Part shown: piece after piece, positions 4,691-47,262 of the stretch
Layout of the letters: every line of letters begins with the position of its first letter
Numbering within the stretch: position 1 is the first letter of the stretch
Origin: a virus
IMG/VR virus record: IMGVR_UViG_2597490295_000013
Coordinates: 21,285-85,284 of that record
Length of the DNA: 64,000 nucleotides
Direction: 5' to 3' (one strand)
Translations under genes and position numbers: made by a program
The notes under the pieces: generated by a model
Database searches by the model: none
Told to the model about the DNA's origin: nothing
The model's input: the letters and a program-made list of their open reading frames with translations, nothing else

Positions 4691-4743
4691 TTTTTTTACC
4701 CCTTTCATAGTGTATAAATAGGGGAAAAATTTCCCCTATTTTA

Positions 4744-5085
4744 TCAATTCAATTGTTGTTGTTGCTTAACCCATTCATCTATCCATTCTTTTTCAATTAT
4801 TCTAATTTCTTCTAATGCGGTATCATCTAAAAAATCGATTAAAATATTCGATAAATCAACAACGGTAACAGTATAATCACGTTTTATAAAAAATTTTGTC
4901 TTTGATTCTTTAGTGCCATGGTGTGCTATTTCGCATATAACATTTTCTTGATTCCTATATTCTTCAAATAATATCAATAGCATTCTTCTAGCTTTTATCA
5001 TATCAAGCTTATAATGATTTACATGTATAGTAGCTTCATCAACAACACCTGATTCTTTATTAATAATTCTATAAGTTGTAAACAT
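4744..5085 (-). CDS. Hypothetical early protein ending TGA-TAA
   Basis: Start ATG 5085 behind AAAGGGGTAAAAA; tandem TGA then TAA (4741-4746). Confidence 0.7.
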   Translation of the reverse strand: MFTTYRIINKESGVVDEATIHVNHYKLDMIKARRMLLILFEEYRNQENVICEIAHHGTKESKTKFFIKRDYTVTVVDLSNILIDFLDDTALEEIRIIEKEWIDEWVKQQQQLN

Positions 5086-5132
5086 AATTTTTACCCCTTT
5101 CATAGTTTTAATTTATAAGGACTTTTTAGTCC

Positions 5133-8057: not shown

Positions 8058-9140
8058 ATGGTGGTGAAAATAATCAAACTTAAACTAGATACAACTATAA
8101 AAACCCAAGAGGAACGAATGGAATATATTAAAAAAATAATAGATTCCCCGGAATTTAGACCTAATTCATGGGTTTTGGAACTATTGACTAACTATGTTCT
8201 ATTTTTGAAGCCAAGAAAAGACCATTCAATTATAAGTGATAATAGACGTAAAACAATAAGGAAAAGAGAAACTTCAACAGAAGGACTTAAAGAAAAATTT
8301 GAAACTGGAGAAGATGCGATTTACAATTTAATTAGAAATGATAAGAATATGATATTATCTCCGAAAGTAACTATAACTCCACGAGATATTGCGGAACATA
8401 TTGAATTGAAACAATTAGTAGATACCATAAAAGAATGAGATGCGGAAATGAAGAGAAAAAATCTAACAGGGAAGAACCTGTATAGAGCAAAGAAAGCATT
8501 AATAGAGATGCGTCAGATGCAATACATAATTAAGGAAGAACTGAATAAACCATCAAGAATGAGAAATTTTAGAAAGACAACTTTAGAAATGCAGTTTAGT
8601 ATTGACACATGGTATATAAAAGAAGATGGAGACGTAAAATTAGTTAGTGAAGATACTATAGATTTTAAAGAGGGGAAGCACATAGAGATGTTGCTTTATT
8701 ATTACCCGAAGCTTATAGATTCTGCTTGAGATTTTAACAAAAGTGAAATGAAACATATATTATGGGATTTGGAATTACTTATTAATGCGTCATTAAAAGA
8801 AAAACCAGCTTGAAAAGATATTATTATTTGGAAAATAGATAAAAGAACTAATAAAGATATTAGAGAAATGTTACGTGAAGACCATAATTTGATCTATTCA
8901 GAAGAATATATTTCTACTTTATATAGGAATAAAATTCCTGCATTTATTGCGGAATATTATAGAATATCAGTAGAAGATTGGTATCATCTTAATAAAGTGA
9001 AAGGCACTTATAAAAAATGTAATAGATGCGGCGAACAGAAATTAATGAATAATACAAATTTTTCATTAAACAAAGGTAGTAAAGATGGGTTCTATTCCAT
9101 TTGTAAATCTTGTCGAAAAAAGAAAAATAAAAAACAGTAA
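8058..9140 (+). CDS. Conserved phage protein with a C-terminal CxxC-x-CxxC zinc finger (360 aa, 3 TGA)
   Basis: Track fragments 8058, 8448 and 8868 are in one frame joined by TGAs; KCNRCGEQK...ICKSCRK; upstream promoter TTGTGT-17-TATAAT (7976-8004). Confidence 0.8.
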
Positions 9141-25984: not shown

Positions 25985-26115
25985 ATCCTGTTTAACAGGA
26001 TTTTTTTTTTATGTGTAATTATCTGATTGGGCAGATTAGTTCAATATATCTTATACATTTTTGATTTTCATATAGGAGTAACATAGGATTTTAAAAGGAA
26101 GAAGGAGGAGAATAA

Positions 26116-42689: not shown

Positions 42690-44369
42690 ATGCCACAAAA
42701 TACACCTAATTATGGATTAAAAAAATATAGCACTATCATAGATGGTCCAGAAATATTTGATAATTATATAGATGATACATCAAATAATTTTGAAATTATA
42801 GATACTGAATTAAATAGAGTAGAAGTTCAATCTGATTTTTATAAAGCTGGTTGAGATGATAACCAAACTTATCCAATTTTAAGTTTTGATGATTTAACTA
42901 GGACTTTTACAGTAGAAGGGAATGGTGCAACTTATTGGATTAATAATGTTCATTATTCTTTAGATATAGATGCTTCTATTCAAATTCCGGCAATTGAAGG
43001 AGTTCATTTTATTTATTTTACTAGCAGTGGTATAGAAACTTCTACTACAGAATGACCTTTTAATAATGAAGTATGTCCTATATCTATTACTTATTGAGAT
43101 AATACTAATTTAAAAAAGATTGGGTTAGGATATGAATTTCATAAATGAAGAATGGATCCAAGTCTTCATCATTATTTACATGATACACGTGGAACAGTAT
43201 ATAGCGAAGGTCTTGGTGTTACTCAGGTATCATCAACTACAATAAGAGTTGGTACAGGAACTATATTTGATGAAGATATAGAATTAAGAATAGGAGACAA
43301 TATAGGGAGTAGTCAAGTATTAAATCCATTGAGCAGTCCTATTGTTTATAGGATAGGAGAAGATGGAGATCTTAGATTAATTACAGCAAGTACTGACGTA
43401 TGTTATCTTAATCCAGGTCCAGAAATAAATACTTTTAATGGAAGTATTTGAGAAATGACATCTGTAAGTAATAATAAATATTTTTGTTATTGGTTACTTG
43501 CAACGAATGATTCAAATTTTCCAATAATTTTAGTACCAGGTCAAGTAGAAGGAGGAACATTAAAAGAAGCAGATGAATTGAACACTTTAGCAGGAATGCT
43601 TTTTGGAAATATTCATTTTGCAGAATTTGTTGTTTTATCAAGAGTTATGATGTTAGCAACTATAAGTTCTTATTCAATAGTACAAATAGATGATTATAGA
43701 ACTTCAAATGTTGCAAGTTCTTCTATCGTAAGCGAAAGTGCTCCTATTGTAATGGATGTTTTACCAGACATTACTACTAGAGATGCACTTGAGAATCCAT
43801 CTACGGGTAAACAAGTTCATATTATTGACGCAAGTGGAGATTCTAATGTCTACTCTAGCTGAGCACAGTATATTTACACAGGAGCGGTTTGAGTAAAAAC
43901 CAATGAAGATGATATTAATACTTCTTTTGGGACTTTTTATCAAAAAGAAACAGATCCATACAATATGGTTACAACTGGGACAAGTACTTTTACAGGAAAT
44001 AAAGTTGCATTAGTAATAACACAATCTGATATTCAAGGAGGAATAAGTCTTAATGGAGTAGATGGCAGACTTGAACATTCTGGAAGAGATACTAATTATC
44101 TCTTTAATGCTACTGCCACAGTTAGGGACCCTGATACTCCAAATATGAAAATTCATTTTATATTAGTTAAGAATGGAACAATATTTATAAATCCTTCAAT
44201 GAGCTATGGTAGATTAGAATCATTAGGAGCTGCTATGAGTTTAGATGCAGCATCTAATGTAAATATGTCAGATGGAGACTATATAGAAGTTTTTTGTAAA
44301 ACTGATAAATTAGATGGAGAATTTTGAGTTGATAGTATGCAATTACAATTAGTTCAAGTTCCACAATAA
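42690..44369 (+). CDS. Tail fibre / receptor-binding protein (559 aa, 8 TGA)
   Basis: MPQNTPNYGL start typical of fibres; three track fragments plus gaps join in one frame; C1q-like end (MSDGDYIEVFC). Confidence 0.7.
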
Positions 44370-44400
44370 AAAAAATCACCCCTTAATTGGGGTGTAATTT
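44370..44400. terminator. Bidirectional terminator between the convergent fibre gene and endolysin
   Basis: A tract-CACCCC-TTAATT-GGGGTG-T-rich. Confidence 0.75.
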
Positions 44401-44404
44401 TACT

Positions 44405-45091
44405 TTACGATTTTAATTTATTCCTTAGTTTTTCTAATATAAGATCAATTTCATTTATTATTGCTAAGCAATCTTGTATTTTTTTATCTTGTTTTTCTTT
44501 TTCTGAATCTTCAAAAAGTATAGAATAATCAATATTAAAATATTTACAAATTGCAACTGCATGAGCCATTGCTATTTTATCACGATAATTTTCATCTAAT
44601 AATTTTTGAGCATCTCTTTTATTAGTCATGAAACCATTTTCACTTAGAATTGCTGGCATTGTAGTATAACGGATTACATAGAAAGCTTTTTCTTTAACAC
44701 CTCTACTAATCATTCCTGTCGCTTTAATTAATTCATCTTGGACAAGTCTTGCTAGTTTTGGTCCCATGCTACTTCCGGGACAATTAAAAGTTTCTATACC
44801 AGTTACGCTATTCCATCCGCCACTACCAAAAGCATTGGCATGGATAGAAACAAAAATATCTGCATTCGTTTTATTTGCGTTTGAAACTATTTCACCTAAT
44901 GGCATATCACGTGTTTCACTGCCAACTTTAATCACTTCAAATTGACCAGTTTTTAATAAAAGTTTTTCAATTCTTTTAACAACTGCGATATTAAAATAAA
45001 ATTCTTTCATGTGGCTACCATCTATAAAATTTGGTGTACGTTTACCAGCTGTGTTCGGTCCATGACCTCAATTTAATGCTACTATATACAT
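44405..45091 (-). CDS. Endolysin, N-acetylmuramoyl-L-alanine amidase (Amidase_3; 228 aa, TGA at codon 8)
   Basis: AAAGGAG RBS; MYIVALN(W)GHG...MKEF...SIHAN...ILSENGF: all three Zn ligands and the catalytic Glu are present only with read-through. Confidence 0.92.
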
Positions 45092-45110
45092 TGTACTTCA
45101 CTCTCCTTTG

Positions 45111-45160
45111 GATATAAGATTCTTATATCTTATTATAACATAGTTTTTTTACTATGTCAA
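45111..45160 (-). promoter_or_regulatory. Consensus sigmaA promoter plus a 9-1-9 palindrome upstream of the endolysin
   Basis: TTGACA(45160-55)-17 nt-TATAAT(45137-32) with extended TG; GATATAAGA-T-TCTTATATC (45111-45129) between -10 and the RBS. Confidence 0.85.
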
Positions 45161-45277
45161 ACAGGGCAGCTAAGAATTGCGGTTGAATTAGATTGGGCGA
45201 ATATATTAAATCTTCTATCGATATTTTGAATATTATATATGGATAGAACTATGTCCAGTTTAAGAAAGGATAGTGAA

Positions 45278-45571
45278 ATGTTCGAGAAATTTAAAAATTT
45301 AGAAACATCAAAAAAACTTATAACAATAGTTACTATAATATGAATATTGTCTATTATTATTGGTTTTGTTGGACTTTCATTTGGTTTTGATTTCATCACT
45401 ATTATAAATGTTGTAAATTTAGATTTTTTAGTTATTCTTGGATACTATTTTACGAAAGCAGGAACTGAAAATGTTATAAAACTTACCAAAAGTTTTAAAA
45501 TTGAAGAAACTAAAGAACCAGAAAAAAACATTTATGATGGAATGGATAATAAAAACAAACAAATGCTATAG
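45278..45571 (+). CDS. Holin-like membrane protein (97 aa, TGA at codon 22)
   Basis: AGAAAGGA RBS; two hydrophobic helices and a charged C-terminus; next to the endolysin. Confidence 0.6.
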
Positions 45572-45581
45572 GAGGGATAAA

Positions 45582-46241
45582 ATGGGTGAATACACCAGTA
45601 TTATTGTAGCGATAATAGCCTTTCTATCAAGTATTATCACAGCTTTTATTAACAACAGATATAGAAAAGCCAAGAGAAAGAAAAAGTTAAATAATAAATT
45701 AATAAATCATCCACTTCATCACCGCATAAAAAGTTATAAAAGAAGATTCCTTATTGATTTCATATTAGGAAACAAAGGAAAAGAAATGATTTTTAGAGAT
45801 TTATTTATTAAAAAGTTTGAATTATGAGCAGATGCCTTATATGAGTTAGCGAAAGAAACGGATGATTGTATAGAGAATTGTCCTAACGCAGATAATTGCT
45901 CAATGATGGAAAAAAGAAATTTATTATGTTTTAATGAAACAATTGAAAAATTTAATGCATATCACTATGGTCCTGAGTATAGTGCGGAAGAAAGGGAAAT
46001 TTTAGAGATTGTGATACAAAGATTTAATATTTGGCAAAGTCATAGACAAAGATTTTTAGAAGAACAAATTATAGATATTTGTAATAATTCCATGATGTAT
46101 CCTACTTGCGAAAGAAAGCAAATTGCTATATTTGATATTTATATGGCGGTTTTTGCAATGACTCTGAATGATGCAATGAAAACAATAGAGTCTATTAATG
46201 GAGAATTAGATGGAAAGAGTTTTAGAGGACAAATAATTTAA
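45582..46241 (+). CDS. Membrane-anchored hypothetical protein of the lysis region (219 aa, 1 TGA)
   Basis: AGGAGG RBS; N-terminal TM helix then a basic stretch; fragments join in frame. Confidence 0.65.
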
Positions 46242-46256
46242 GATAAGAGGTGAGTG

Positions 46257-46904
46257 ATGCTAGATAATAAAACGATAATATTAGATATTGGATATATAGA
46301 AGATACCTCAAATAATCATAGTGAATTATGTCCTAAAGATTTTAAATTTAATATTAAAGTTATTAAACTTATTAAAAAAATTTTAGAATTAAATGGAGTA
46401 AATGTGGTATTAGCGCAACCTTTAAACTTTGATAAGATATCTTTAAAAGATAAAATTGCGTTAGAAAAAGAAGTAAAAGCGAATGGATTTATTTCTATTC
46501 AGATTAATAAAAATTTAAATAATAAATTTGATGATTGAATTTTTTATTGGCATACTTCACATGAAAGTGGTAAATTAGCTGCTTTTATAGATAGATCTTT
46601 AGATGATTATTTAAATAGTATTGACAGAGATATAACAGCATCAGCTCCTGGCTCTTGGAATGATTTTCAAATTTTGAAAGAAATAAATTGTCCAGTAGTA
46701 GTAATAGAATATAACCATATTTCTAAAAAATATTCTACTATAAAATATGCGTTATCTATTTCAGAAGGAATTATGCAATTTTTAGATATAAATTATATCT
46801 TAAAAATAAAGAAAAATAAATTAGTAATATTAATAGAAAAAACTATATATCTATTAAATAAATTATTAAATAAAATATTAGAAAAGGAGGAACATAATGA
46901 TTAA
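46257..46904 (+). CDS. Amidase_3-fold protein lacking the zinc ligands (pseudo-amidase; 215 aa, 1 TGA)
   Basis: IILDIGYI (for DxGHG), KDFKFN (for xEF.FN), FISIQIN (for SIHAN), ILKEINCPVVVIEY; fragments join in frame. Confidence 0.6.
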
Positions 46905-47262
46905 TTGGTCTTTAATTTTAGCTTTTTTACTAGTTGTTGCATTAGTTAGTTATTTTCGTTATGGAGCACCTTGGCTAAGAGCCAAAGGATTTGATTACTA
47001 TAGTGAAGTTAATTTAGCTTTAATGTTTACAGGTTATGCTTTTAGAGATGAAAAAATAAAAAATATAGCGGAAATTGCTCTTGTAGTAGTGAAAGGATTA
47101 GAAGAACTATCCTTAACTGCGACTGAGAAGCATGAAGTAGCTATAGTTGAATTAAGTAAAGAATTAATGAATGAATTTGATTTAATATTGGATGATGAGG
47201 CTTTAGATTTGCTTGTAAAATTAGCAGTAACTATTTTACCTCCAACACACATTCAATCATAA
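46897..47262 (+). CDS. Putative holin (LL-H-like)
   Basis: 121 aa; N-terminal TM helix, amphipathic C-terminus (EKHEVAIVEL); lysis region. Confidence 0.45.
   Translation: MINWSLILAFLLVVALVSYFRYGAPWLRAKGFDYYSEVNLALMFTGYAFRDEKIKNIAEIALVVVKGLEELSLTATEKHEVAIVELSKELMNEFDLILDDEALDLLVKLAVTILPPTHIQS

Follow-up and report, generated by a model that had tools for sequence, protein, structure and literature searches.

The window analysed here is a stretch of 64,000 nucleotides (nt) from the virus record IMGVR_UViG_2597490295_000013, equivalent to bases 21285–85284 of a 127,832-base contig (C53) that is part of a 2.1-Mb assembly; coordinates are those of the window unless preceded by C53. It encodes a protein of the Amidase_3 family (amidase A; 44405–45091, minus strand), an open reading frame (ORF) of 228 amino acids which is intact if TGA is read as Trp and whose product is the probable endolysin of a phage. 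The gene is antisense to the plus-strand late genes on either side (42690–44369 and 45278–45571), contains an in-frame TGA at codon 8 (45070–45068, minus strand), two codons ahead of the zinc-ligand histidine H10 in the motif G-H-G, and is preceded by a perfect consensus promoter and a palindrome, all as described in an earlier reading of the letters alone (hereafter the sequence-only reading). That reading had further proposed that the message could be made early by host RNA polymerase and yield only a seven-residue peptide until TGA is read through, so that the switch of the genetic code would time lysis. The analysis below favours another interpretation, in which amidase A is a self-contained unit of the host-sigma type and its TGA is ordinary recoding.

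Amidase A matches Pfam family PF01520 (Amidase_3) over protein residues 4–182 with an E-value of 3.6e-37 (128.5 bits; cut-off 27), covering profile positions 1–173 of 174, and is assigned to the endolysin family PHROG 435 (9e-44). It aligns from residue 2 with the catalytic domain of CwlV (1JWQ), where the zinc ligands H10, E30 and H84 and the catalytic E151 are alignable, and these four residues are invariant in 120 homologues. The C-terminus is a helical tail of ~40 amino acids, and the protein has no recognisable cell-wall-binding domain or signal peptide. Under translation table 11 the ORF starts at Met28 only (44405–45010); since this product would lack the first zinc ligand, amidase A needs read-through of codon 8, and the Pfam match from residue 4 together with the invariant residues bears out the earlier statement that the enzyme requires this histidine. 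The only Amidase_3 matches in the whole assembly are amidase A and amidase B (46254–46904, plus strand), a paralogue of the same fold with a partial Pfam match (1.1e-12), whose zinc ligands are replaced in the ortholog alignment (His to Tyr, Glu to Asp and His to Gln). Amidase B is presumably non-catalytic, so that amidase A would be the working enzyme; it is predicted to be the sole catalytically intact peptidoglycan amidase of the phage and is most likely its endolysin. Both proteins finish in a helix rich in Leu, Ile and Lys (encoded at 44405–44530, minus strand, in amidase A), and a two-subunit lysin is conceivable.

The amidase A promoter (45132–45160, minus strand) is a sigma-70/sigma-A consensus with an extended -10 element (TTGACA, 17 nt, TGtTATAAT), comprising the -35 hexamer TTGACA at 45160–45155, the TG dinucleotide at 45140–45139 and the -10 hexamer TATAAT at 45137–45132. 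It scores 12/12 plus the TG extension and is the sole such site found within 43800–46400 by a consensus scan. Translation signals readable from the sequence are AGGAG (45107–45103, minus strand) and the ATG at 45091. At the other end, a bidirectional intrinsic terminator (44377–44394), which is absent from the sequence-only reading, sits between amidase A and the convergent fibre-like gene; it has a 6-bp stem with five GC pairs and T runs on each strand. Because this terminator closes the unit, amidase A forms a one-gene transcription unit.

Perfect copies of TTGACA-14-TGnTATAAT occur 15 times in the 127.8-kb contig, where 0.005 are expected (200 Markov-2 simulations), and four times in the remaining 1.99 Mb of the assembly. 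Fourteen of the 15 lie in C53:5220–13485 or C53:104776–125470, that is, in the TGA-poor arms and the tRNA array, and the amidase A promoter is the only one in the intervening 91 kb, inside the late block. These counts support its assignment to a putative host-sigma early class of the phage, in agreement with the earlier attribution to host RNA polymerase. Approximately 16 protein genes stand first behind promoters of this class, and 13 of them lack TGA. Most of the early-class promoters are followed by an initial transcribed sequence, ATATATAGAA(A/G)T; at amidase A the palindrome stands where ATATATAGAA usually lies.

This palindrome (45111–45129) is perfect, with two 9-nt arms around one central base, and it lies over the expected transcription start, between the -10 element and the ribosome-binding site, as the sequence-only reading had it. 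By itself it is within chance, since ~9 perfect palindromes with arms of at least 9 nt are expected per contig and 28 matches were found, mostly terminators; it appears suggestive solely by its position at the transcription start. An RNA hairpin was rejected for want of support: the fold is weak (-5.8 kcal/mol, z = -1.65) and is lost if transcription begins 7 nt past the -10 element, a usual start distance, no consensus RNA structure of the region was found across the relatives described below, and no predicted structure covers the ribosome-binding site of amidase A. An operator with further copies was likewise rejected, no second copy being found in the contig. In the relatives, the palindrome matches at six of eight positions in one (L001), weakly in another (L002) and unrecognisably in a third (L004). 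The earlier suggestion of an added operator therefore does not gain from the single, degenerate or lost sequence, and the palindrome is a candidate operator for which the role is possible but unsupported.

The codon-8 TGA itself is reproducible, the identical sequence being found in another assembly record and in eight contigs at high coverage whose gene calls are truncated in the same way; a single study and sample set is the source of every known carrier. Among the 120 homologues, position 8 is occupied by D (68), A (35), N (10), G (3), and by C, V, P and W once each, where W is the query itself. A protein search returned, besides the window's own truncated product, four relatives whose contigs (L001–L004) were compared with the window; their amidases are 86–88%, 64%, 59% and 54–56% identical to amidase A, values that vary with the method. 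Codon 8 is GGT in L001, GCA in L002, TGT in L003 and GTA in L004, encoding Gly, Ala, Cys and Val, respectively. No TGA occurs anywhere in the amidase genes of L002–L004, and that of L001 has one, at the invariant Trp93.

The layout of the locus is common to L001–L004: the fibre-like gene converges on the amidase, and a holin-like gene of 90–95 amino acids, a membrane protein of ~220 amino acids and the dead paralogue diverge from it. L001, L002 and L004 retain the promoter (TTGACA-17-TATAAT), the inverted orientation and the genes on either side; L003 retains the orientation and the fibre neighbour, and its contig is cut after the -10 element. In L004, the sequence past the -10 element resembles the usual early initial transcribed sequence. 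Of the two kinds of conservation on which the sequence-only reading depended, the inverted orientation thus holds in related phages, but the codon-8 TGA does not. L002 and L004 are recoded themselves, whereas L003 (a Logan contig of 4164 bases with the same gene order) contains 0 TGA and 14 TGG in four genes and is possibly a standard-code member of the clade. Scans of viral and metagenome data for further relatives yielded one more close contig only, from the same phage as L002.

The phage as a whole, of ~128 kb, is predicted to be virulent, siphovirus-like by its portal and tail genes, and to read TGA as Trp. C53 has a coding density of 0.625 under code 11, which code 4 raises by 0.14 to 0.763, and the other contigs of the assembly reach 0.73–0.95 under code 11 (0.52 in one 15-kb contig), with a code-4 gain of at most 0.09. 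The 114 ORFs of at least 100 amino acids contain 112 in-frame TGA and 224 TGG as Trp codons, TGA accounting for 0.18 of Trp codons in the early arms, for 0.34 in the late block and for 0.42 in the replication block; roughly two in three middle and late genes rely on the suppressor tRNA. In 27 of 39 ortholog pairs, among them the one at the invariant W93 of the L001 amidase, TGA stands opposite Trp or TGG; in the other 12 it falls at non-Trp positions. Along these 114 ORFs, the relative positions of TGA are uniform (Kolmogorov–Smirnov p = 0.68) and show no difference from those of TGG (p = 0.65), so a 5' bias that would indicate gating was not found. Reading TGA as Gly (code 25), which the Gly at codon 8 of the closest relative had prompted, was rejected: elsewhere TGA lines up with Trp, and the A1-U72 pair and G73 of the phage tRNA are not of the Gly type.

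The tRNA(UCA) gene (C53:115102–115175, minus strand, outside the window) was identified by ARAGORN and Rfam (36.6 bits) as the first gene of a minus-strand array of 24 tRNAs, near which no ribozymes or other Rfam families were found. It shares A1-U72 and G73 with the tRNA-Trp(CCA) that is the only Trp tRNA of the remaining assembly; these residues fit Trp identity and predict charging with Trp, and the acceptor stem has two U-U mismatches (U2-U71 and U3-U70). Directly upstream, a perfect early-class site, whose -10 element ends at 115444, and a twin with one mismatch (115363), both in C53 coordinates, are arranged in tandem. Two early-arm ORFs (1000–1377 and 4741–5103, both minus strand) appear to end at TGA, one of them with a TAA directly after it and the other with the TGA nine codons before the next TAA or TAG. 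Given the phage's own tRNA(UCA), the TGA-poor early arms and these two ORFs, TGA decoding is probably supplied by the phage. A native code-4 host was rejected as the source, since TGA is avoided in the early arms, the tRNA(UCA) is phage-borne and a peptidoglycan amidase is ill-suited to the known wall-less code-4 bacteria.

Genes with PHROG matches include, on the plus strand, the sigma factor, PhoH, portal, tape measure and minor tail proteins, and, on the minus strand, Pol III alpha and RNR. The sigma factor (8058–9140, plus strand; PHROG 5767, 4.5e-45) stands at the head of the late block and has TGA at codons 127, 224 and 252, and Pol III alpha and RNR have four TGA each. As the sigma factor carries three in-frame TGAs, late transcription should wait for the code switch, and as Pol III alpha and RNR carry them too, the switch would have to precede replication as well. 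The TGA-poor arm encodes, by Pfam, gyrase A and B, a GIY-YIG endonuclease, an Rnl2-type RNA ligase and an SLT transglycosylase. The GIY-YIG homing endonuclease (C53:118884–119732, minus strand), between a gyrase B fragment and gyrase A, contains three TGA and no TGG in an arm that is otherwise TGA-free. The SLT-domain transglycosylase (C53:123458–124069, minus strand), also in an early arm, has no TGA and lies ~550 nt downstream of a perfect early-class promoter. No terminal repeats were found in C53.

Around amidase A, the convergent tail-fibre-like gene (42690–44369, plus strand; 559 amino acids) is the most recoded gene of the locus, with eight TGA and two TGG, and all eight TGAs align with TGG in L003. 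On the other side, a plus-strand cassette begins with a protein of 97 amino acids (45278–45571) with two hydrophobic segments and a weak PHROG match, which is termed holin-like here on a topology judged by eye. Its TGA at codon 22 (45341–45343), rightly noted in the sequence-only reading, encodes a conserved Trp that L001 and L002, like the window, spell as TGA and L004 spells as TGG. The next gene (45582–46241, plus strand) encodes a putative lysis-cassette protein of 219 amino acids, membrane-anchored at its N-terminus, which belongs to PHROG 18926 (unknown function; 5e-24) and has one TGA, at codon 82 counted from the ATG at 45582, kept in the window, L001 and L004. Amidase B follows, and then a protein of 121 amino acids (46897–47262, plus strand) without TGA and with a weak match to the holin family PHROG 6918 (5e-5). 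The neighbours of amidase A thus have hydrophobic segments and weak family matches only (PHROG 6918, 5e-5; PHROG 3793, 9e-4).

Upstream of the holin-like gene lies a conserved block (45193–45240, plus strand) of the form TTGGGCGAA ... TATTAAAT ... TTTGAATATTAT, in which the GCCCA and AT-rich blocks are invariant in all four relatives. The motif GATTGGGC(A/G)(A/G)A occurs in this block and upstream of the tape-measure gene (26026–26040, plus strand), and the block is a candidate late promoter for the phage sigma factor. Related TGGGCAGAAAT copies are found in an ORF-free stretch (C53:9600–11200).

The assembly is 92.8% complete and derives from marine sediment metagenomes of one study; a look for RNA runs containing this region found none. 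Its RF2 (472 bits) is 70–71% identical to proteins of Izemoplasmatales metagenome-assembled genomes. RF2, tRNA-Trp(CCA) as the only Trp tRNA and contigs dense under code 11 indicate that TGA is a stop in this bin, which however is wall-less and may not represent the host. The bin bacterium is considered wall-less because MraY, a penicillin-binding-protein (PBP) transpeptidase, FtsW/RodA and MurA were not found in the 92.8% complete assembly. An intact amidase and an SLT transglycosylase in a phage binned with a wall-less bacterium mean either mis-binning or a wall-acting phage of a wall-less host. The GC contents are similar (28.5% in the phage vs ~29%), and no CRISPR spacer, integration or other sequence link was found to tie the phage contig to the remaining assembly. 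The nearest cultured relatives of the portal are those of 134–142-kb phages of Enterococcus and Brevibacillus. Phage contigs are often mis-binned, and this is most likely the case here. From the phage itself, we infer that the true host uses the standard code, because the early genes are TGA-free, two early ORFs seem to end at TGA, and both a suppressor tRNA and a wall-degrading enzyme are encoded by the phage.

The best overall explanation, to which we assign a probability of roughly 0.68, is that amidase A is a self-contained host-sigma unit and that its codon-8 TGA is ordinary recoding without a dedicated lysis clock. Early-class promoter, gene and terminator would have been set backwards, clade-wide, between the tail-fibre gene and the holin cassette. 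Because it has no recognisable signal peptide, amidase A could accumulate in the cytoplasm at any time, and a cytoplasmic endolysin is harmless until a holin acts. Instead, the timing of lysis would fall to the membrane proteins encoded in the plus-strand cassette, under their own conserved and probably phage-sigma-dependent promoter. The codon-8 TGA would be a change specific to this lineage that put a Trp codon at a variable site. The tRNA(UCA), made from early-class promoters, would serve the sigma factor and the replication enzymes; since it is transcribed early and is needed for these proteins, codon 8 could delay the amidase at most until the general code switch.

Several observations weigh against this interpretation. 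Trp at position 8, beside G-H-G, is present in none of the 119 other homologues, and in the two most recoded relatives (the phage of the window and L001) the amidase gene contains a single TGA, though not at the same codon. Only three of the ~16 protein genes behind early-class promoters contain TGA, amidase A among them, so that an early promoter with a TGA gene is an unusual pairing within this phage; moreover, the bin that holds the phage contig is that of a wall-less bacterium. A purely neutral change at codon 8 is not obvious, and selection for the codon itself has to be allowed for.

The proposal of the sequence-only reading is the first alternative, namely that the codon-8 TGA was selected as a translational catch on an mRNA made early by host polymerase, which would yield a seven-residue peptide until suppression begins. 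It would account for the early-class promoter of amidase A, for a TGA placed ahead of the first zinc ligand, where termination leaves no activity, for a Trp8 unique among 120 homologues, as if the codon rather than the residue counted, and for the TGA retained at Trp22 of the holin-like gene in three phages; there is also a precedent in the early, untranslated lysozyme transcript of T4 gene e (PMC3014915), and published work has raised the idea for recoded phages generally as well as for a crAss-like amidase. However, promoter and orientation persist in three of the four relatives although their amidase genes lack TGA, the suppressor tRNA is itself preceded by early-class promoters, read-through is required earlier by the replication genes and the sigma factor than by lysis, TGAs show no 5' bias, and a cytoplasmic endolysin would do no harm before a holin acts. 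With codon 8 unconserved and the sigma factor, Pol III alpha and RNR recoded as well, the code switch is unlikely to act as a lysis clock through this codon. UGA is also reportedly leaky in Bacillus (Lovett et al. 1991), a further point against such a catch. It is similarly doubtful that the endolysin is the one late function which the unmodified host polymerase transcribes from the first minutes onwards, with a TGA, recently gained at a position tolerant of different residues and shortly ahead of the first zinc ligand, as its safety catch against premature synthesis. Were this so, the catch would be a stop-codon version of the T4 hairpin in an early stage of evolution, with the TGA sitting at codon 8 in this phage and at codon 93 in its nearest relative, and missing from the farther ones, a course of events we regard as improbable.

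Another alternative, very unlikely in our view, is that the codon-8 TGA is damaging, with either a Trp by the zinc site or failed suppression weakening or abolishing amidase A, and that other enzymes such as the SLT protein lyse the cell. Nearly all homologues have D, A, N or G at position 8 and no other has W, the carriers all come from one study and sample set, and an SLT transglycosylase is indeed encoded, which would agree with such damage; but elsewhere the gene is undamaged and every catalytic residue is present, the same sequence recurs in eight high-coverage contigs, and TGA at non-Trp positions is common in the clade (12 of 39 pairs). That the phage infects the wall-less Izemoplasmatales-like bin bacterium, its amidase being an accessory, moron-like unit that acts on the peptidoglycan of other bacteria or on a non-wall substrate, is the least likely account, since the missing wall genes, the similar GC content and the amidase A layout with its own promoter and terminator are countered by the adjoining holin-like genes, the portal's affinity to large phages of walled Firmicutes, the second wall-acting enzyme (the SLT protein), the lack of any CRISPR or integration link found to the bin and the frequency of mis-binning.

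The locus indicates that the clade's endolysin falls in the host-sigma promoter class rather than the late regulon, as a separate antisense unit in the late block, and that the phage sigma factor depends on the code switch, a more plausible point for recoding to control late events. If codon 8 were a true gate, it would offer a simple single-codon test case for the published but untested idea that a code change times lysis. The locus is also a clear-cut case of a recoded phage from a non-gut source.

Recoding as a regulator of lysis has already been proposed in print, and the locus adds another recoded phage. The sequence-only reading had cited as established that stop-codon recoding has been proposed to time lysis, and this is indeed published: Borges et al. 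(10.1101/2021.08.26.457843; later Nat Microbiol 2022) proposed that recoding withholds lytic proteins until the code changes, and described a preference for TGA in a tail protein positioned upstream of the lysis-gene cassette, in a transmembrane protein of the cassette and in an intron endonuclease of an early gene. By descriptive traits alone, the present phage appears to match their Agate phages, having a genome of similar size (~127 kb in Agate), TGA read as Trp, a phage suppressor tRNA, standard-code early genes, a strongly recoded tail protein just upstream of the lysis cassette (here the fibre-like gene), a recoded transmembrane protein in that cassette and a recoded homing endonuclease in an early gene (here GIY-YIG, beside the gyrase genes). 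It differs in that its replication genes are as recoded as its late genes (0.42 vs 0.34), whereas those in the paper are standard-code, in that it comes from marine sediment rather than the gut, and in that the amidase family is not among the preferentially recoded Agate families.

In T4 gene e, early read-through transcripts are untranslated because the ribosome-binding site is sequestered, and late transcripts are translated (PMC3014915; McPheeters et al. 1986). This resembles the earlier proposal for codon 8, as the mRNA of a lysis enzyme is made early and its translation is blocked until late. The T4 block, however, is an RNA hairpin over the Shine-Dalgarno sequence that is relieved by late promoters, whereas a stop codon relieved by a tRNA would be the block here; no structure is predicted over the ribosome-binding site of amidase A, and the block is unconserved in its relatives.

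Compared with Amidase_3 endolysins and autolysins such as CwlV (1JWQ) and the members of PHROG 435, amidase A has the same fold family and the full set of zinc ligands and catalytic Glu. It differs from them in its helical tail of ~40 amino acids in place of a cell-wall-binding domain, in the Trp before G-H-G, and in its setting, being antisense to the late operon behind a host-type promoter with a dead paralogue nearby.

Morons are reported (Juhala et al. 2000; Hendrix et al.) as independent promoter-gene-terminator units placed within the late operons of phages, and they are usually accessory genes expressed from prophages. Amidase A is comparable in that a single gene between late genes has a sigma-70-type promoter and an intrinsic terminator to itself, but unlike a moron it would be the core lysis enzyme of a virulent-looking phage, and its position is kept in all relatives seen.

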